Positions 26,830 through 61,004 of a DNA stretch of 64,000 nucleotides are shown here, one piece after another. The position numbers and the translations under genes are program-made. The DNA lies in NCBI GenBank assembly GCA_028534125.1, contig CM052851.1, forward strand, positions 54,126,001 to 54,190,000, in the 5' to 3' direction. This stretch comes from Lama glama (Eukaryota). The notes below the pieces were generated by a model. It was not told the DNA's origin, ran no database searches, and saw only the letters and a program-made list of their open reading frames with translations. How positions within the stretch are numbered: the first letter of the stretch is position 1; every line of letters begins with the position of its first letter.

Positions 26830-27070
26830 ATTTATTATATGGTGGGCACTAAAACTCGACATGTAGTAACTCATGTAATCCTCACAACCTTAGAAGGCAG
26901 GCACTGTCATCATTTCCAGTTTAGAGATGTGAAAATAGAGGCACTGAGAAATCAAAATACTTGTCCAGATTTACAGCTACTTAAACAGGAGGGGAAGTGT
27001 GGCTGGAATTTGAATCCAGGCTTCAGGGCTCCAGAGCCCAAGCCCTAAACACTAACACTGTGCCACACCA
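26830..27070 (-). mobile_element. MIR SINE
   Basis: aatcctcacaacc...gaatttgaatccaggc...ctccagagccc. Confidence 0.75.
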
Positions 27071-27279: not shown

Positions 27280-29930
27280 TACACTTCTGAGATATGATTT
27301 ACATAAGATGATATGCCCAGATCTTAAGTATACAGTTAAGTGAGTTTTCACGAATGGATACATTGGTACAGCCACCACTCCAAACAAGAATACTTTTATC
27401 GCCTAGGAAACTCTTCTGCGCACTCAGTCACCTCACCCTCTACTCTTTTTCTGTCCAGAGAATCTCTGATTTCTATTAACATAACTTAGTTTTGTCTGTT
27501 CTTTAATTTCTACATGTAACTGAAATCATGTAGCATGTACTCTTTTGCGTCTGGCTTTGTTCACCCTCCACGTTTTTAAGATTCATTCATTATATTGTGG
27601 GGGTTATTTTGCTTTTGTTTTATTACTGAGTCCATTGCATGAGTTTACCATACTTTTAAATTCGTTTACACGTTGACCGCTTTTTGAGTTGTTTCTAGTT
27701 TTTTGGCTATTATGAATAAAGTTTCTATGAACATTTTTATACTTTGTGTGAACACATTTTCTTTTCTTTCGAGTAAATACCTAGGAGTTGAATTGCTGGG
27801 TCTTGCGGCAAGTGTAAGATTAACCAAACTGTTTACTGAAGTGTTTGCATCTTTTTTCATTCCTACCAGCAAGCAATCTAGGATAGTTACGGTGGATCCA
27901 TATCCTCACCAATATTTCGTATTATTGATCTTTTTAACTATTCTAGTAGCTGGGAAGTGGCATCTCATTATAGTTTTGATTTGCATTTCTCTGATGACTA
28001 ACGATGTTAAATATCTTTTCACGTGTTTCTCGGACACTTGTGTATCTTCTTTTGAGAAATGCTTGCTTGAATCTTTTGCCCACTATTTAATTTGCCTGAC
28101 TTTCAAAATACTAAATTCTAGGGGTTCTTTACATATTTCAAATTCCAGTTTTTTGCTTAATTTATGCATTATGATTTTCCCCCCAATCTGTGTTTTATCT
28201 TTTGTTTCCTTAATAGTGTATTTTGAAGAAGTTTTAAATTGGGCTGAAATACAATTTAACAATCTTTTCTTTCATAGCTGATGCTTTTTGTGTCCTAGGT
28301 AACATGCTTTACACTAAGGATATGGAGATATTTCTCATCATTTTCCTCTAGCAGTTTTATAGTTTTAGCTTTTATGCTTAAGTTTGTGATCCATCTTGAA
28401 TTAATTTTTGCATATTGTGTGAGGCAGAAGTCTGGATCAAATTGTATTATGTTGATACCAAGGTTTCCCAGTAATGTTTGTTAAAAAGAGAGTAATTTTC
28501 TTATGGAAATACCTTGGAAGCTTTGTTGAAAATAAATTAATGCATATGTGTGAGCCTGTCTTTGGGCTACCTTCTTTCCTTTGCTCTACCTACGTGTTCT
28601 TCACATCTATCACAATGACTTGGTTATTGTAGCCTTTTAGTAAATCTTGAAATCAGGTTGCATAATTCTTCCAATTCTGTTCATTTTCAAAATTGTTTTG
28701 GCTATTCAAAGTCCTTTGTATTTCCACATATAGTTTAGCATCAGCTTGCCATACCTGCTGAGATTTTGACAAGATGAATTTGGGCAGACTTGGCAACTTT
28801 ATAATATTGAACCCTCCTATTTATGAATAAAGCTTATTTTTCCTAAATTTATCTGTCTCCTTTAGCTTCTCTCTGTAATGTTTTACAACTTACAATGTAG
28901 AGATTCTACACATTTTTGCTAAATATATTCCAAAGTATTTTACATTTTTAGATGCTATTGTAAGTGCTATTGCTTTTCAATTTTTATTTTTTCAATTATT
29001 TTTCCTACTATGTATAAGTGCAATTGACTTTTGGATATTAAATTTGTATCCTGTGTCTTTGCTAAATTCTTTTATTGAAAGCAGTAGGTTTTTGGGTAGA
29101 TTCCTTAAGAGTTCCTATGTAAGCAATCATACTGTCTATTATAAAGATAGTTTTAACTACCTTAGTCTAATCTTCGTATATTTTACATTTTTATTTTGAC
29201 TTATTGTACTGGCTAGAATTTCTGGTGCAGTGTTGAATAGAAATGCTGAAAATGGATCAATATGTCCCAGTCTTAATTGTAGAGGAATAGCATTTAATAT
29301 TTCATTATTAAGTATGATGTTAGTTGGAAGATTTCTGTAGATACTCCCTATCAAGTTGAGAAAATATTCTTCAATATTCCTCTAGTTTTTCTTTGCTGAG
29401 AGATATTTTTTAACATCAATGAGTGTTGATTTCTGTCAAATGCTTTTCTTGAGTCTATTACCAGGATCATATTTTTTTCCTTTATTCTGTTTATACAGTG
29501 TACTAAATCAATTGATTTATTAATGTTGCACCAAGCTTGTAGGATGTCTCACTTGGTCATACTAATATTACCTTTTTTTTAACGCTTTTTATATATTGCT
29601 AGATTTCATTTACCATTATTTTTGATTTAGAATTTTTGCACCTATGTTAATGAGGGATTTAAAAAAAAATCCTCAAGGATTTGTTACCAGAATTATACTA
29701 GCCTTATAAAATGAGTTGGGAAGAGGATATTTTCTGAAAATGTCTAAGTATTTGTATATTAAGATTTTCTATTTCATCTTGTTTTAGTTTGGCAAGTCGC
29801 ATTTTAAAGAAATTTGTCCATTTTATCTAAGCAGTCAAATTAGTTTGCATAAAATTGTTCATAAAATATCATCATTATTCTGTGACTATGAGATCTCTAA
29901 TGATGCATATAATTTCTCTTATCTCTTACT
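27280..29930 (-). mobile_element. Old L1M element: 3' UTR plus decayed ORF2 3' half
   Basis: ORF 29157-29354(-) IYRNLPTNIILNNEILNAIPL...FLFNTAPEILASTISQ resembles the L1 RT motif IYDKPTANIILNG...LLFNIVLEVLARAIRQ; L1M 3' UTR near 27290. Confidence 0.9.
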
Positions 29931-33060: not shown

Positions 33061-33153
33061 AAGTTTCATGAATATTTTAAGTGAGTACTAGAAGTTTCAT
33101 GAATATGTTAAGTAGGTGTGAGAATTTCCATGAATATATTAAGCAGGAGAATG
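33061..33153 (+). repeat. Three diverged 31-bp tandem units with core TCATGAATA..TTAAG
   Basis: aagtttcatgaatattttaagtgagtactag / aagtttcatgaatatgttaagtaggtgtgag / aatttccatgaatatattaagcaggagaatg. Confidence 0.85.
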
Positions 33154-41515: not shown

Positions 41516-43911
41516 GTTTAAATAGTCAGTTATCTTTTCAAAGACATTACCATGTCTGGTATTCTTCATTCCTTTATGTAGATTCATATATTCCTCTGGT
41601 ATAATTTTCCTTCTATCTGAAGAAGTTACTTTAACATTTCTTGCTGTGCAGCTTTATTGATGTTAAATTCTTCCAGCTTTTGGATGCCTGAAATGTTCTT
41701 AATTCCATCTTTATTTGTAAAAGGTATTTTTCTGGTATAGAAATCTAAGTTAACAGTTATTTTCCTCTTGCCTTTAAAAACGTGTTGCTTCACTCTTTTC
41801 TTCCTTGTGTTGTTTCCAACAAGAAATCTGTTGTCATTTTTGTCTTTATCCCTGTTTACATGTGACTTGATATTTTTTTCCTTTGGCTGCTTAGAATTTT
41901 TTCTCTTTATAATTGGTTTTAAATAATACTTGGTAGAATTTTCTCCATGTTTCTTGCACTTAGGGTTCATTAAACTTCTTGGCTTTATACATTTATAGTT
42001 TTCATCAAATGGAAAAACTTTGGCTATTCTTCTTCAAACATCCCCCTTCACTAACATTTCAGGGCTCTACTCATCTGTGTACTGGGACTCTTGATGCTTG
42101 TCTCTCCTCTCCTCCTCCTCCCCCTTCTCTTCCTCTTCCTTCTCCTTTCCTTCCTACACATTTTCTTTGTGATTCATTTTGGAGAGTTTCTATCATCATG
42201 TCATCAAGTCACCAGTCTTCTCTTCTGTACTAATTGGCCATTTCCCTCAACTGGTATTTTTTTCATTTTATACATTTTGGTTTTTAATTCAAGAAGTACA
42301 ATTTGGGACATTTAAAAATATCTTCCATGTCTCTAGTTAACTTCTTAACATATGGAATACTATTATAATGTCTGTTTTAATTTCCTTTTCTGCTAACTTT
42401 AACATTTATGTCAGTTCTGGGTAGGTTTTGGTTGAGTGATTTTTGTCTCCTCATTATGGGCTGTATTTTCCTGTTTCTTTGCATATGTGACTAGATGCCA
42501 GACATGGACTTTTACTTTGTTGGGTTCTTTATATTCCTATAAATTTTCATGAGTTTTGTTCTGGATGCAGTTATGTTAGTTGGAAATAGTTTGGTAATTT
42601 TGGGTCCTACTTTTATGATCTGTTAGGTGGGTCTGAAGTAGTGCTCAGTTTAGAGATTACTATTTCCCATTACCAGAGATTTTTTTTAGGTATGCTACTC
42701 AATCACCCATGATCTATGCAGTTTTCCAATCTGCCTATGTGAGGTCAGGCATTGTTCCTTCTAATCCTTTTAGGTGGTTTTTCCCCCAGTCTCAGGTAGT
42801 TCCCTTACATGCATGTGCTGATCAGTACTTAGCTAAGTAATCTGAGAAAGTACTTTCAGATCCCCAAAGTTTTCTCTTTGAACTATCCTTTCCTCATCAG
42901 TAGTCTGCTCTCCAACTGCCTTGGTCCTTTAGGACTTTTAGCCTCATTTCCTCAACTTAGGAAGTTAGGAAGGGCCCAAGGGGCTCTGCCTGGTTTTCTT
43001 CTCCCTGCACTGAACTCTTTCAGGAGACTGTGGTAATTGTAGCCCTTACCTTATTTACTTCCCATCTCTCGGGGAGCACTGTCCTTCTTTGCCTGATTTC
43101 CAGTATTTTGAAAACCATCATTTCATATATTTTGTCCACTTTTTGGTTGTTTCAGGGGGAAGGTAAATGGGTCCCTCTCTAGACTTTCAGTGACATGTAT
43201 TCCAGAGCCAACCATCCAAGGCAGTAGGTATCAGACAGTGAAGTGGTTAAAATTTTAAGTGTCTTAAGAGTGCCTAGTAAATAAATTTCTTTTCTTTGCT
43301 CATATTTAGAATAAATTAGGAGATAGTTGTGGAGTTAGAGAGATGGAGACGGAGACCTGCTCCTTTCTTATATAAGCTGGAGAAAGTAGCTAAGATTTGC
43401 AGTCAGCTCACTAACATTTCACCTTGATGTAGACAGACTTACTCAGTCACAAGCAGCCTGAACAAGCACAATCCAAACCCAGGGGCCAATCCAGAAAAAC
43501 CTGCAGCCTGAAGGGGCAATGAAAGTTTCCCCATGGCAGGTAGGGAAATGCCACAAGGAAAGAGAAGGAGCTGGGTGAAGCTCTATCTTTCAAATTCTAC
43601 AGATAAGCAGCTCCTTCTCCCCTGGGGACACCTGCTGTAGACTTTGCAAGAGGCTTTGAATGCCACTGTAGAAAGGCCCCTACCTGTGGAAACTAGAGGG
43701 GTGGAGATGAATGGTCTCACAAAATGTCCAGTAGTAGCAGATGGTTCTTGGCTCTCCCAAGTGATCTTGGACAAATTAATCTCTAACCTTATTTCTTCTT
43801 TGAAGCTGACCCACAACCTTCAATGAATTTTTGTAGTATGTGCTCCTCACCTAGTCCCTACCATCTCTCTCCCTCTCTTTCTTTCTCTTTTCCTTATGAT
43901 AACACCAGCTT

Positions 43912-50649: not shown

Positions 50650-53177
50650 GCTTTTGCTAACGGTCCATCACTGGACCATAACAAGCAGGAAATGAAGAAA
50701 CTCTTTGTAAAATAAAGGCAACTAAAACGGAGCATTTGATGGAAAGGTGGAGGAGGAAGAGTTGGCATAAGGGAAGGAATTGGAACAGTGATAATCAGGG
50801 TGTTTCCACTGTGAATTATGCAGCGTGGCATGAAGTATATTCTTTCCGAGTACTGGCCATGGGCAAAGTGGCTGAAAGAGTAGTGAAAGTGAAAATACTT
50901 TTGAAAGTGCTTTTTTGATCTGTCTCATATCTGGGGTGTGATGGGGAAGCTGACATCATTCTCTTAAACTTAGTGCTGCCAAGGAAGGGGGACATGGTAA
51001 GGGCTTTGGACTTTCCTTGAATGACTGGTACACAAGTCAGGTGCTTGATTTTTATGGGGTGAATAATGATAAACATCAGTCTGAGGGGCAATGGAAAGAG
51101 AATGGCTGGAAATCAGAAGTGAGAAGACACGATCAGAGGCCTGACTCCCTCAGTAATTACCAATGTGCTCTTGGGGAAATAAAGCCAAGCTCAGCTTCCA
51201 ATTCACTAAAATGGACCTAAGAACACCTTACCTACCTGATATAAGGATCATGTCATGGTCTCTGTGAAGGCACCTTTTAAACCACCAACTGTCCTATAAA
51301 GTTTGCTATCTCTACTTGGGAACAAGTGAGTATCATTGTAGGACAGAGTGGGTGAGGGTGTTTTATTGCAAATCATATTTCCTTCTTTTAAAATATGAAA
51401 TTATGTCTACTGGCGAATATACAACAAATCTTTTAAAAAAGCATTTTCTCTTAAATGACCCTACATTTGGTCCTGAAGTGTTATCCAAGTGTTACGTAAG
51501 CAGAATTCTTTGTAAAAAGTTTGGAAACTTATTTTTCAGAGCTGTATCATCATTATTATTTTTTTAGAGTATAATTTATCTTTCTATAATTCCACATCTT
51601 TCTTGGTTTTGTTAAAGTTGTTCAGTTATTAAAAATGACTCTCCCTGAGACTGTTCCTTAAAGACCTATCAGGAAACAGCAGAATAACATCATAGAGCCA
51701 ACATTAGACACTGTGGTCAGAGGACAATGAACTTTCTTCCCTGGATTTCTGGCGTCTCTGCTGATCAATTAAAAGTTGATCAGCGTGATGATAAGAGAGA
51801 AAAATGGAGGCAGAAGAGAGAGAACTGAGGGAGGGGATGATTAGGTAGCTCTTAGTCATAAAATGAATGAGAACAGTTTGTTTGCTATTGGGACTTTCTT
51901 TTAATAAGGTGCTGAAAATGGAGAGCTTGAGAAGTTACTCCAGAAAGAAATTCATTTGCAGTAATAGGATGGAAATACCTGGTTCAGTAAAGTGAGACAT
52001 TTCTATTGCTTTGGGTAACTGATTACAAAATCTTCAAGAAGCTATAAAGAGTGATTTAGTTGTGCTTCTAGTGTTATGGGAAATAACTCACTGATGAAGC
52101 AGGCTGAGCTGATTTCTATAAGCTGACTCTAAAATGTTAGAAACCAGACAAAAGTGTGAAGATTAATTAATAAGCTACGCTGGTCCCTAAGGTGTTACCT
52201 GTCTATGCAGGGTTGTTACCAAAGTTTGAAAATGTGTGAAGTTTTTGACTTCCTGGTCATTAAAGTACTCAAAGAATTCTGTCCATATAAACTTTGCAGT
52301 CTCAGAAAGTCAAACCAGTTGGAACAGGTTTTCTCTGCTCATTTTGCCCTCTCTGCTTGTATCCTGATTGGCAGATGGACAGAGGTGTGAATGTAAATGC
52401 AAACCACTCTGACAGTCACTGGAAAGAAAGTTGCTTATGATAATTATTTGTACTCAGCAAGCTTCTACTGTGCCTGTGTTGTGCTGTCTTAGCTAACAAA
52501 AACCTGTGCTCATACAGCATGGAATTATATGCAATCAATATTTTCTTTTTCTTTTTTCAGGTTTATGGAAGTATAAACTGCAAATCAGAAGTATATAGAT
52601 TTAAGGTACACAATGTGATGTTTTGATATACACGTACATTGTGAAATGATTACCACAGTCACGCTAATTAATGTTTTCATCATCTCACGTAGTTACCAAT
52701 TTTTTGTGTCTGGTGAGAACACTTAAGGCCTGCTCTCTTACCAAATTTCAGGGACACAATACAGTATTAATAACTATGTGCAAAAGGTTGTGCAGCAGAT
52801 CTCTAGAACTTGCTCATCTTGTGTTACTGAAACTTTACAACACTGAACAGCAGCTCTCCAGTTCCTCCTCCCCTAGTTCCTGGCAACTATCATTGTACTT
52901 ACTGTTCCTATGAGGTGACTTTCTTAGATTCCACATACAGCTGAGTTCATGCAGTATTTGTCTTCTGTGTCTGGTTTATTTCAATTAGCATAATGACCTC
53001 CAGGTTTATTCATTTTGTTGTAAATGCAAAATTTCCTTATTTTTAATGGCTGAACAATATTCCATTGTATGTGTATATATATGTGTGTGTATATACATAC
53101 AATGGAATATCATATATATATATATGTATTTCATATCTTCTTTATCCACTCATCAATGGACACTTGGACTGTTTCCT

Positions 53178-53525
53178 NNNNNNNNNNNNNNNNNNNNNNN
53201 NNNNNNNNNNNNNNNNNNNNNNNNNNNNNNNNNNNNNNNNNNNNNNNNNNNNNNNNNNNNNNNNNNNNNNNNNNNNNNNNNNNNNNNNNNNNNNNNNNNN
53301 NNNNNNNNNNNNNNNNNNNNNNNNNNNNNNNNNNNNNNNNNNNNNNNNNNNNNNNNNNNNNNNNNNNNNNACAGTGAACNNNNNNNNNNNNNNNNNNNNN
53401 NNNNNNNNNNNNNNNNNNNNNNNNNNNNNNNNNNNNNNNNNNNNNNNNNNNNNNNNNNNNNNNNNNNNNNNNNNNNNNNNNNNNNNNNNNNNNNNNNNNN
53501 NNNNNNNNNNNNNNNNNNNNNNNNN
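53178..53525. other. Two N runs (53178-53370, 53380-53525) separated by a 9-bp island
   Basis: acagtgaac at 53371-53379. Confidence 1.
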
Positions 53526-54244
53526 TTGCCTATTGGCAATCTGTATGTCTTCTTTGGAAAAATGTCTACTCAGGTCTTCTACCCATTTTTAAATTGGATT
53601 TTTAAAAATTCAGTTGTATGAATTCTTTACATATTCTGGATATTAACCCTTTTGACTCCTATAGCTTTGTAGTATAGTTAGAAGTCAGGGAGTGTGATAC
53701 CTTCAGTTTTGTTTCTTTCTCAGGATTACCTTGGCTATTCAGGGTCTCCTGTGGTTCCATACAAATTCTTAGATTATTTGTCCCACTTCTGTGAAAAGTG
53801 CTATTGGTACTGTAATAGGGATTATATTTAATCTGTAGATTGCTTTGAGCAGTATTGTAATTTTAACATTAACATTTCTGATCCATGAGTACAGTATATC
53901 TTTCCATTTATTTGTGTCATCTTTAATTTCTTTCATCAATGTCACAATTTTCAGAGTACAAGTCTTTCACTTCCCTTGTCAAATTTATTCCTAGGTATTT
54001 TATTCTTTTTGATGGAAATGTAAATGGGACTATTTTCTTAATTTGCTTTTTATAGTTTGTTATTAGTGTATAGAAATGCAACAGATTTCTATGGATGAAT
54101 TTTGTATCTTATAACTTTACTGAATTCATTTATTAGTTATAATAGTTTTTGGTGGAGTCTCTAGGGTTTCCTATATATATACTACTATGTCATTTGCAAA
54201 TAGTGACAGTCATGTCTTCCTTTCCAATTTTACGTTTTTTATTT

Positions 54245-57790: not shown

Positions 57791-60234
57791 TACATATTTT
57801 GTGACCAAAGGATCCATATGCAGCCTCAGTTTCCTCTCCTGTATCAGAACTCAATATCCCTTGCTCCTTCCCCAGGGTGTTTCTGGCGCCATAAATCTCG
57901 TCCATGGAACCAGGAGGAAAAAGGAGGTGTGAACATGCCTGCAGTCACTCGAGTCTGGTGCTGAGGTCCAACAGCCCTGCCCCTTCCAGGAAATAAGTAC
58001 TTTTAACCTCATCCTGCTGTTTCACCCCACGTGCCCTCACCTGCAGGTGTATCCAATTGCTGCCCTTCTCTGTTTGCAGCCATATCTTCTTAGTTTCCTG
58101 ATGTCTACAGGCACAGGGATTTTATTCACTGCTGTCCCTTGTTCTGTAATGGTATGAAGCCTTTTTGTAGGGTACAGGATCTTCTGTCTCTCTCACTTAT
58201 TCCCTATCCAAAACTTCTCTTCTATTATCAACTCAGAATCAACTGTACTATCTCATCTCATGAACATTAAAAAAAATCTATTTCCCCCTTTGGCAATTTT
58301 ATACCATAACAGCAGTTTCATACAATTTTGAGCAAAAAAATTGAGGAGGGGGACACATCTGTGGATGACCAAAGGACTCCATAACAAGCAATGCTCCTTT
58401 AACTGCTGTTTAAATATGTCTGAAGTCTTGACATTTCAGTAGTCAACAAAAAAGAGAAGCGTGGTACCATCCAGAGGAAATGGTACAATTTTTCCTTACT
58501 GTCCTCTCAATTAATTTCAAGGTGAAACTCAAAGGGACTATGAAAAAGTAGAATGAAAAGGAGACACTTCAAGCTTGTTCTATTTTTGTTTCCTGAGCTC
58601 AATATGTCTTAAAATTGGAAGGCAGAATCCAGGTGTTAGCAAGGTATTACCCCAGGGAGATGTGAGAGTGGAGGCCAGGCAGGGAAAGGGCACTAAACTA
58701 TGCATATTGTATGAGGGATTAATTGCCAGGAGCATGTGAGAAGAATTACGGCACTTAATATCCAGAGCCTCAGCAAATATCAACATGGGAAAATCATCAC
58801 ATATCTGCAAATACAGGAGGATTCCTAGCCAATGGATTTAAAAAAAGATTAGTTTCTTTCTTCATAAATGATAGAAGACGTTTTAGGGGGAAAATCCACC
58901 AAAGATGAACTGTATTGTGTAGTGTATCCTAAATATTTTCAAGTTTAATTTCTGAACGATCATGGTAATTGAGACCTTTAAAAATAGGGGAGGGACATCA
59001 TGCAGTGTTTCCTGGCTTTGTGGTACACCTTCCAATCAAGCTTGCTTATTTTGTAAATCTGTAGATATCATGCTGTATAATGAAGATTCAGGTTTATCAT
59101 CCAGAGCCTGAGGCACCATTAGATCCTAAGTGCTAAATGGGAATTCAATTATGTTCTCTCCATCCTATTTACCAAAGCAGAAAATTGGAATTATTAGTCT
59201 TAGAACAGCGTTTCTCGCTTGTGAGTAGGGAGAGGACAGAGATACTTCTTTCCCCTGGGGAGAACACATCACATTCTCCCAGAGGGTGTATGAAAATACG
59301 TATTTAATACCATACAGAATTTAAAGTTGACTCACCACAAAAAGCCATTATTTTTGTAATGTAAACTACATGAGAAAAGCTGAAGGAAACATCCTGGCTG
59401 ATGAAGCCATATAAAACAGACTTTCCCCTGCCTCTCAGTGATTCCTTTAGGAAGGCAAGGGCAAGGTCTCTGGACACATGCGGTGGAGCAGAAGCTCCAG
59501 AGAAGGGGGAGAGATTTTTAAGTTCAGCAAGAAAGAGCATAGTTTAAAGCACACTGAGAAGCATGGACCTATAACAAGGTCCCATACAACAGGTCCTGTT
59601 ATAATGCCATGCTCACCCTTCACTTAACGGGAAAATTCAGCCTAATGGGGACTTCCTGACCATTTCGATTAATACAGATCAACTATTACCTATTTGATTT
59701 TTTTTTTGGATTAGTTATTTTTGGTAATATGTAGACCTGACCTTTCATGTAATGGTCTATTTGAAGCCAGAGGGGCTCTTTGTGGCCCTGCAGAGTCCTC
59801 CCACTGCTGGGGGCAGTTCGCTGGTATGGAAGAAAGAGGAGTTATTGAGCACAGATGTCCTTTTTGATTTGATTCTTAGCAAAATGGGGGTAATAGAGTG
59901 CTCACCAATGCATGGAATCTGTTACAACTGCTTTCTTGCTTTGCTTGGAGGAAGAACACAAGTAAGAAATGTCTTTGCTTTTTTCTTTTCATTTCTCACT
60001 AAGCTTGTTAGGAGAAGAAATGACATTAAGGAATTCTGTGTGTTAAATTTGTCCCTGCTTCCAAATCTAGCACTGTTTAAGGTTATAAAACCATCAAAAA
60101 ATTTGAGAAAAGGAAGAAAAGTAAGTCACGTAATTATCAGATAGCTTGAAGAATAGTGGTTTCAACTACGTGCTCCTTAAAACTCCAAGATCTCACACTA
60201 AAATTAAGATGCAGAATTCCCAATTTATGGTTAA

Positions 60235-60267
60235 TCAGAGTCCAGAGTGCTAACCATTACACGATGG
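60235..60267 (-). pseudogene. Tailless retrocopy of the 5' half of tRNA-Gln(CTG), flanked by a 16-bp TSD
   Basis: Minus strand CCATCGTGTAATGGTTAGCACTCTGGACTCTGA versus recalled tRNA-Gln-CTG GGTT-CCATGGTGTAATGGTTAGCACTCTGGACTCTGA (32/33); aatttatggttaatca at 60222-60237 and 60270-60285. Confidence 0.92.
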
Positions 60268-61004
60268 CTAATTTATGGTTAATCACTCAAGAATTTTCAG
60301 CAACCGAGTTTGTAGGCAAAATGCTTACATTAGTTTTAACAATCATATTTTTCTTTCTCTTTTACCTTTTAAAATATCAAGAGCCTGCTTTTAATAAAAA
60401 CACTCCCTAAATGTCCTGTCGCTGACTACATCTGCTGTACTTGGCAGAAACCTGTCCTCTGATATGCATGCAGAACCACAGGGTAATCCTTCCAGTAAAA
60501 GCAGCAGGAACATTATGCTTAGGAAGGCTTTGTGTTCATTCCCGGGTTTCTCAACTTAGAAAGGATTTGGAGAAATACAGAGGAGGCCCCAAATACCAAT
60601 GAGGGATTTAAAGGATCTGAATGCAAATGCACATATAGTTAGGAAAGAATAAGAGGCTAAAGAAAGTTGCCATATGAGGACCTAGACCAGTTTTTTTTTT
60701 TTTTTTTGTCACTAGTACCCTGAGGGATGCTAGTGGCTCTTTCATGAAAATCTGCCACTTCCATGAATAGTTCAGTTATTGACAACTGGCCCAGCATAGT
60801 AATGGCTTCCAGGAATGTCTTTAACACTTACTGTGCCAGGCACTGTGACATGAAAAAGCAAGGCTAGACATCACATCGCAGTGTGAATGTGTCCTACTGT
60901 GCCTGGCTCTGGCATTATGTGGGCAAGGCTTACTGGAAGGAGCTAGAAACTTGTCGGTGCAATGTTCTTGTCATCATCAGACAGGTATTGTTGTAAACAG
61001 AGGA

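Follow-up and report, generated by a model that had tools for sequence, protein, structure and literature searches.

How a piece of a glutamine tRNA came to lie between two identical 16-nt repeats, and why it departs from its source genes at one letter only, is the question raised by positions 60222–60285 of the window (the whole 64-kb stretch of Lama glama DNA that was analysed). The insert is likely a retrocopy of an end-processed tRNA-Gln(CTG) made by LINE-1 (L1) target-primed reverse transcription, its single G9>C change being a copying error at methylated G9 (m1G9) that became fixed in the germ line. The anatomy of the insert, its source and a family-specific excess of changes at tRNA position 9 were observed directly and are described below with their controls.

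Anatomy and class of the insert

The direct repeats (60222–60237 and 60270–60285) were identical at 16/16 positions and separated by a 32-nt spacer, confirming the perfect target-site duplication (TSD) described in the sequence-only reading. Apart from a CA microsatellite, no exact direct repeat with a gap of 10–300 nt in the 64-kb window was longer than this pair, and the chance of any such 16-mer pair in the window could be roughly estimated at ~0.015, before exact bracketing of a tRNA was required. Comparison with the genome's own genes reproduced the earlier assignment to tRNA-Gln(CTG) from about nt 5 to past the anticodon with 32/33 identity; likewise, no poly(A) tail was present at the insert, and the last three tRNA bases (nt 35–37) proved to be the first 3 nt of the repeat, as had been claimed. 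The following features could be distinguished.

60270–60285, minus strand: 5' TSD copy (the genomic target before insertion), which opens with the three letters of tRNA nt 35–37
60268–60269, minus strand: two letters that match no retrieved tRNA-Gln gene at nt 3–4 (by gene comparison)
60235–60267, minus strand: tRNA-Gln(CTG) nt 5–37, 32/33 identical to genes L001, L003–L006 and L008, without leader and without tail
60263, minus strand: tRNA position 9, G>C, the sole mismatch, at the m1G9 site (by gene comparison)
60235–60237, minus strand: 3-nt microhomology (anticodon nt 35–36 and A37) common to tRNA and target (from the sequence)
60222–60237, minus strand: 3' TSD copy (exact repeat)

The two letters at 60268–60269 were likely added without a template at the 5' junction once tRNA nt 1–4 had been lost, and the microhomology at 60235–60237 is likely the priming site. 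Because this microhomology makes the boundary ambiguous, the duplication could in truth measure either 15 or 16 bp. A 28-mer covering tRNA nt 10–37 occurred nine times in the 2.35-Gb genome, and the reversed control pattern did not occur. The nine occurrences consisted of six tRNA-Gln(CTG) genes called by ARAGORN, the window copy and two other TSD-flanked tailless copies (L002, L007).

ARAGORN called no tRNA in the 64-kb window and Rfam reported none at the insert even at E ≤ 10, which bears out the earlier expectation that annotators would miss it; the Rfam matches surrounding the insert (E 3.6–8.5) were rejected as chance. A 7–8-nt reverse complementarity between the TSD and the tRNA D-loop was also set aside as chance, since two of the 95 sister copies described below reached at least 7 nt and shuffles gave about one. 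Six ORFs of the window gave no Pfam match, and no host gene was named from them. Judged from its letters, the insert, without box B and the 3' half, is most likely inert.

As a tailless retropseudogene of tRNA-Gln(CTG), the insert is an ordinary member of a published class, whose founding paper is said to be Schmitz et al. 2004. The screen described in Noll 2015 (PMC5322556) takes copies with ≤5 nt missing at the 5' end, ≥10 nt truncated at the 3' end, a length ≥30 nt, an identity >69%, a TSD of 8–35 nt that is ≥70% identical, no oligo(A), an end in a loop, and a target complementary to the terminal 2–18 nt. The insert lay within all of these sequence limits, in agreement with the earlier classification: it covers nt 5–37 of 72 (33 nt, 97% identity), its TSD is identical at 16/16 positions, and it ends at nt 37 with a 3-nt microhomology and no oligo(A). 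The class as presented there and the insert thus have in common the 3' truncation, the loop end, the absence of oligo(A), the TSD and the target complementarity, and processed as well as unprocessed templates are described for the class (PMC5322556), as among the copies studied here. The flanks of the insert were unlike those of all other matches, so that it is not a genomic duplicate of another copy; one weak 49-nt match, ~900 nt off, was found among 685 kb of retrieved loci.

The length of the TSD and the class point to L1 as the probable maker of the insert, and such copies are reported to be absent where L1 is inactive, namely in platypus and chicken (Noll 2015, PMC5322556). The L1 mobilisation claimed earlier would fit the class, but the target of this insert agreed with the published L1 consensus TT/WAAAAWW at only 4/9 positions and is not a canonical one; the motif is a statistical consensus, on which the screen for the class does not rely. 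The same 4/9 agreement would suit an origin apart from L1, either by templated insertion during double-strand-break repair or by a DNA-level partial duplication of a tRNA gene. Such an origin is nevertheless extremely improbable, as TSD lengths among the 95 sister copies peaked at 15–18 bp, their targets as a group were T-rich at 34–35 and A-rich at 37–40, no gene flank accompanies the insert, and copying of DNA would account neither for the end at nt 37 nor for the error at nt 9.

As neither the TSD pair nor 32 sites of the body show a mismatch, the divergence of the insert should be roughly <5% by our own arithmetic. All 92 words sampled from a 931-nt region were present in sequencing runs under five organism labels (12/24 rows at 1.00, several of them possibly the source sample), which suggests that the filled allele is shared. 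The earlier description of a young insertion therefore holds loosely, within this bound on divergence.

Changes at tRNA position 9 among sister copies

The single mismatch had been passed over as noise in the sequence-only reading, but position 9 turned out to be the informative letter. The tRNAs that TRMT10A methylates at G9 in human cells include Gln-CTG/TTG, Arg, iMet and Pro (Vilardo 2020, PMC7293042). The m1G9 list given in that paper includes Arg-TCT and no Gly or Ser, and m1G9 is described there as causing RT stops and misincorporation. A TRMT10A dependence of tRNA-Gln(CUG) is also reported for mouse (Tresky 2024, PMC11347157). The methylation status used throughout is that of human HAP1 cells and not of the llama germ line.

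The m1G9 idea was noted before the survey, and Arg-TCT (test) and Gly (control) were picked after the Gln pattern. Every family was searched alike with tRNA nt 10–32 at ≤2 mismatches and with nt 9 left free, a pattern that misses older or shorter copies. Patterns were used because a complete tRNA gene, taken as the query of a BLAST-type search, returned the 21 full Pro genes only. Copies were kept when TSD-flanked and 5'-alignable, after de-duplication, and two loci (L022, L243) were assigned as genes by hand. All 47 Gln matches were retrieved, comprising 27 genes and 20 truncated copies, from which 2 duplicates and 6 filtered copies were removed; the survey of TSD-flanked tRNA-Gln 5' copies that had been proposed earlier thus gave 12 kept copies. 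The six filtered Gln copies, which failed on TSD or 5' alignment, carried C, T, A, G, T and G at nt 9. For Arg-TCT, 30 of the 32 matches were retrieved (5 genes and 25 truncated copies; 1 duplicate and 1 copy with G9 but without TSD removed; 23 kept). All 70 Gly-GCC/CCC matches were retrieved (13 genes and 57 truncated copies; 2 duplicates and 11 filtered copies removed, 2 of the latter changed; 44 kept). The remaining families gave Ser, 43 matches, 41 retrieved, 9 truncated, 2 duplicates and 7 kept; Trp, 24 matches, 6 truncated and 5 kept; Thr, 19 matches and 2 kept; Asp, 14 matches, 9 retrieved, 3–4 truncated and 2 kept; and iMet, 13 matches with 1 truncated copy without TSD. No truncated copies were found among the 21 Pro matches, all at gene positions, or the 8 Arg-TCG matches.

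Among the kept copies, those with a base other than G at nt 9 numbered 5/12 for Gln and 18/23 for Arg-TCT, compared with 1/44 for Gly and 1/7 for Ser. Fisher tests against Gly and Ser together (2/51) gave p=0.002 for Gln, p=7e-11 for Arg-TCT and p=4e-10 for both (23/35); when Trp and Thr were added to the test group, 23/42 copies were changed (p=3e-8). The unfiltered, de-duplicated set showed the same pattern (Gln 9/18, Arg-TCT 18/24, Gly 3/55, Ser 1/7). The context was matched between test and control families, being T8-G9-G10-T11 in Gln and Gly and T8-G9-G10-C11 in Arg and Ser. Age was considered as a confounder and rejected, since Gly copies are the more diverged and the effect persisted in the youngest copies (perfect TSD, ≤1 other mismatch), of which 11/17 were changed versus 0/23 (p=5e-6). 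An artefact at the edge of the search pattern was likewise dismissed, the design being identical across families and nt 8 being changed in 1/35 copies.

It could be argued that the insert is an ordinary tailless retrocopy in which G9>C arose as a neutral mutation after insertion, while a family-wide scar might still be real. Taken by itself, a single substitution among 33 letters would attract no notice, and G9 was kept in 7/12 Gln copies. However, the non-CpG background over nt 5–32 was 1.9% in Gln, 2.2% in Arg-TCT, 3.8% in Gly and 0.6% in Ser, and a background of ~2% per non-CpG site, with every kind of base change included, stands against 8/9 leaderless Gln/Arg copies changed at nt 9; the remainder of the insert and its TSD are perfect, and nt 1–4 were lost as well. 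A neutral change is therefore considered unlikely.

Changes at nt 9 might also stem from source genes that differ at this position and are unassembled or extinct, from a DNA context prone to mutation or from selection acting on box A, rather than from methylation of the RNA. The assembly is fragmented (1,072,352 contigs) and at least one source gene is missing from it: 12/44 Gly copies (e.g., L080, L083, L105) carry T5>G, which was present in 0/13 Gly genes retrieved, and the source gene of this variant is missing from the assembly or lost. Moreover, a Val-TAC gene equals Gln-CTG at nt 1–8 and has A9, so that template switching could explain A9 in Gln copies. Against this, G9 was present in all source genes retrieved (Gln 27/27, Arg-TCT 5/5), and the substituted bases were of three kinds (A in 10 copies, T in 8 and C in 5, where part of T9 may be decayed C-G), unlike the Gly variant at nt 5, which is always T>G. 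The 11 Arg copies sharing one leader end carried G in 5, A in 4, C in 1 and T in 1; three different substitutions at one site thus came from one leader class, and since same-leader copies show all four bases, a variant gene cannot give the pattern. Neither C9 nor T9, nor any of the Arg copies, can be traced to the Val gene, and Gly, with the identical four-letter context and box A, was changed in 1/44 copies only. These sources of change are therefore judged very unlikely.

The 5' ends of the copies bear on a further reading, in which RT stopped at m1G9 and left a cDNA ending with nt 10, and the seven letters 5' of it in the insert are filler, untemplated or switched in, whose likeness to nt 5–8 is due to chance; this would still be a methylation footprint, though one of a stop instead of a misincorporation. 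The Gln copies L017 and L042/L045 match from nt 10 only, and m1G9 is reported to halt RT in primer extension (PMC6212784). RT stops at nt 4–7 are attributed partly to m1G9 in Clark 2016 (PMC5066629), and the first four nt were missing from 5/23 changed copies versus 3/63 others (p=0.03), as well as from the window insert. Yet 18/23 changed sister copies run on as far as nt 1 or take in leader sequence, and the insert matches at 4/4 positions of nt 5–8, for which chance would account in ~1/256 of cases. A complete stop is thus a highly improbable account of the insert, and misincorporation with read-through at m1G9 is preferred as the probable cause.

In the other listed m1R9 families, no position-9 scar was observed among the kept copies of Trp (0/5), Thr (0/2) and Asp (m1A9; 0/2). 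Trp and Thr are low-confidence entries in Vilardo 2020 (PMC7293042), and 6/7 Trp and Thr copies carry ≥2 extra 5' letters. The Trp, Thr and Asp copies, almost all of them with additional 5' letters, may derive from unmethylated precursors, an explanation that was made post hoc. One filtered-out Asp copy was changed at nt 9, and so was the single truncated iMet copy, which lacks a TSD.

Leaders, priming and the state of the templates

When Gln and Arg-TCT copies were grouped by leader, a grouping made after seeing the data, nt 9 was changed in 8/9 leaderless versus 9/20 clearly leader-bearing copies (p=0.04). In Gln, the effect (leader-bearing 1/7, leaderless 3/4) was not significant (p=0.09); in Arg-TCT, 8/13 leader-bearing and 5/5 leaderless copies were changed. 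The m1G9 signature is stated in Vilardo 2020 to be very low in precursors, with data not displayed there (PMC7293042), and the 8/13 leader-bearing Arg-TCT copies conflict with this unless Arg-TCT is methylated early.

The copies resemble the tRNA-seq signature of m1G9 as published (PMC7293042, PMC5066629) in that position-9 errors occur in TRMT10A substrates and not in Gly or Ser, and in the early drop-off at nt 4–7; a weaker signal in Gln and Trp precursors may be a further likeness. They differ in that leader-bearing Arg-TCT copies carry the signature, unlike the precursor data reported in Vilardo 2020, and in that the error share among read-through copies is 66% (Gln and Arg) compared with 5–20% in the HAP1 libraries (PMC7293042). 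Furthermore, an endogenous RT of the germ line would here have left the signature in the genome itself. The word stem 'modif' is absent from the main text of Noll 2015 (PMC5322556), which describes no error tied to a modification at a particular site. A literature search found no report of L1 RT behaviour at m1G, and none of modification scars in retrocopies within a body of literature with few subscription papers and without Schmitz 2004.

The 3' ends were assessed by comparing the pre-insertion targets of the 95 sister copies with the tRNA. The target equalled the tRNA at nt 35 in 49/95, at nt 36 in 81/95 and at nt 37 in 80/95 copies; at nt 38 the match fell to 22/95 (expected 0.23), and no position ≤34 was in excess either. 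In part, the match at nt 37 reflects endonuclease preference, because targets are A-rich at 37–40. Since targets match at nt 36–37 and not at 38, the templates reached nt 37 and were probably primed on 2–3 letters of the anticodon loop. This pattern fits internal priming or an RNA cut at 37/38; the former was favoured in Noll 2015 from 5S and U2 data (PMC5322556). Some sister copies extended to nt 39–49 and therefore had longer templates. Among Arg-TCT copies, 16/23 ended exactly at nt 37 and none past it, and position 37/38 of Arg-TCT is described as its splice site (PMC10275265). The templates of these copies may be splicing intermediates consisting of the leader plus 5' exon. About 24 tailless Arg-TCT copies (L180–L209) were found against 5 genes retrieved, and most of them retain a leader.

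Stress- or sperm-type tRNA halves are ~30–35 nt long, and those ending before nt 36–37 cannot supply these letters. Capture of a cleaved 5' half, which had been offered earlier as one origin of the insert, could not be established, as sister templates reached nt 37 and many had precursor leaders. The insert and the tiRNA-Gln described in Cosentino 2018 (PMC6212784) are alike in being a 5' portion of tRNA-Gln that ends near the anticodon. The 5' tRNA fragments reported in that paper measure 29–50 nt and are linked to loss of m1G9 (PMC6212784), whereas the template of the insert likely carried m1G9. The genomic ends observed here are probably set at nt 36–37 by target pairing, and many sister templates are leader-bearing precursors, unlike 5' halves.

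Retrocopying of tRNA-Gln(CTG) by L1 with an error at m1G9 would thus proceed in four steps. A nick would expose a DNA 3' end that could pair with nt 35/36–37, where the microhomology is seen. The RT, presumably L1 ORF2p, would then copy nt 34 back to nt 10, a stretch that is free of errors in the insert. At nt 9, the methyl group of m1G9 would block Watson-Crick pairing, so that a wrong base is inserted; the enzyme would read four further letters, leave at nt 5 and add two letters, which would yield the observed arrangement. A staggered second nick, probably by the L1 enzyme, would finally produce the 15–16-bp duplication that is present. The template of the insert was probably a mature tRNA.

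Modification marks, gene sources and other features

The insert alone is ordinary, and the position-9 pattern is the added part. If this pattern holds, thousands of ignored tRNA fragments would be dated single-molecule reads of germ-line tRNA, and mismatches in such copies could not be taken as a neutral clock. The pattern would also show an endogenous RT at a methylated base in vivo, separate mature from precursor templates, and order methylation and leader removal for each tRNA. We lean towards a broader reading in which the copies are a fossil record of germ-line tRNA modification left by an L1 RT that passes m1G9 in vivo and whose errors become fixed, with pre-tRNA-Arg(TCT) methylated at G9 before leader removal, unlike Gln and Trp, and with one leaderless Ser copy hinting that m2,2G26 is recorded as well. 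If this reading is true, any mammalian assembly would tell which tRNAs were methylated, how far they had been processed at that point, and in which earlier lineage this happened.

Position C32, which we take to be m3C in mature Arg-TCT, was changed in 1/22 Arg-TCT copies only, which fits precursor templates. In Ser, where G26 is presumably the m2,2G26 position, the leaderless Ser-CGA copy L273 (G000:C26:7867279) carries G26>T. The other leaderless Ser copy (L274) carries G26>A inside a CpG, and the five leader-bearing Ser copies retain G26.

Leaders of 4–6 nt tie Gln copies to individual genes (L002, L007 and L019 to L008; L011 and L024 to L003) and likely mark transcription starts; L002 and L007 have a common leader that is one letter off L008. 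The yield of copies was uneven between families, with none from 21 Pro and 8 Arg-TCG genes (both G37) compared to 55 for Gly and 18 for Gln (A37). This may reflect a need of the endonuclease for A, or a blocked base 37.

Elsewhere in the window, a weak Rfam tRNA match (30.7 bits) at 26995–27069 on the minus strand resembles the tRNA-like head region of an ancient MIR-type SINE and not a gene. At 33061–33106, two identical direct copies of 15 nt lie 16 nt apart. The ORF pieces at about 27700–28300, 41600–42000 and 53000–53600 resemble decayed L1 ORF1/ORF2 and gave no Pfam match. Among the retrieved loci, an abundant tRNA-Ala-like SINE was called by ARAGORN as Ala, Thr or Leu tRNA (L052, L053, L054, L083, L105, L203 and L236).
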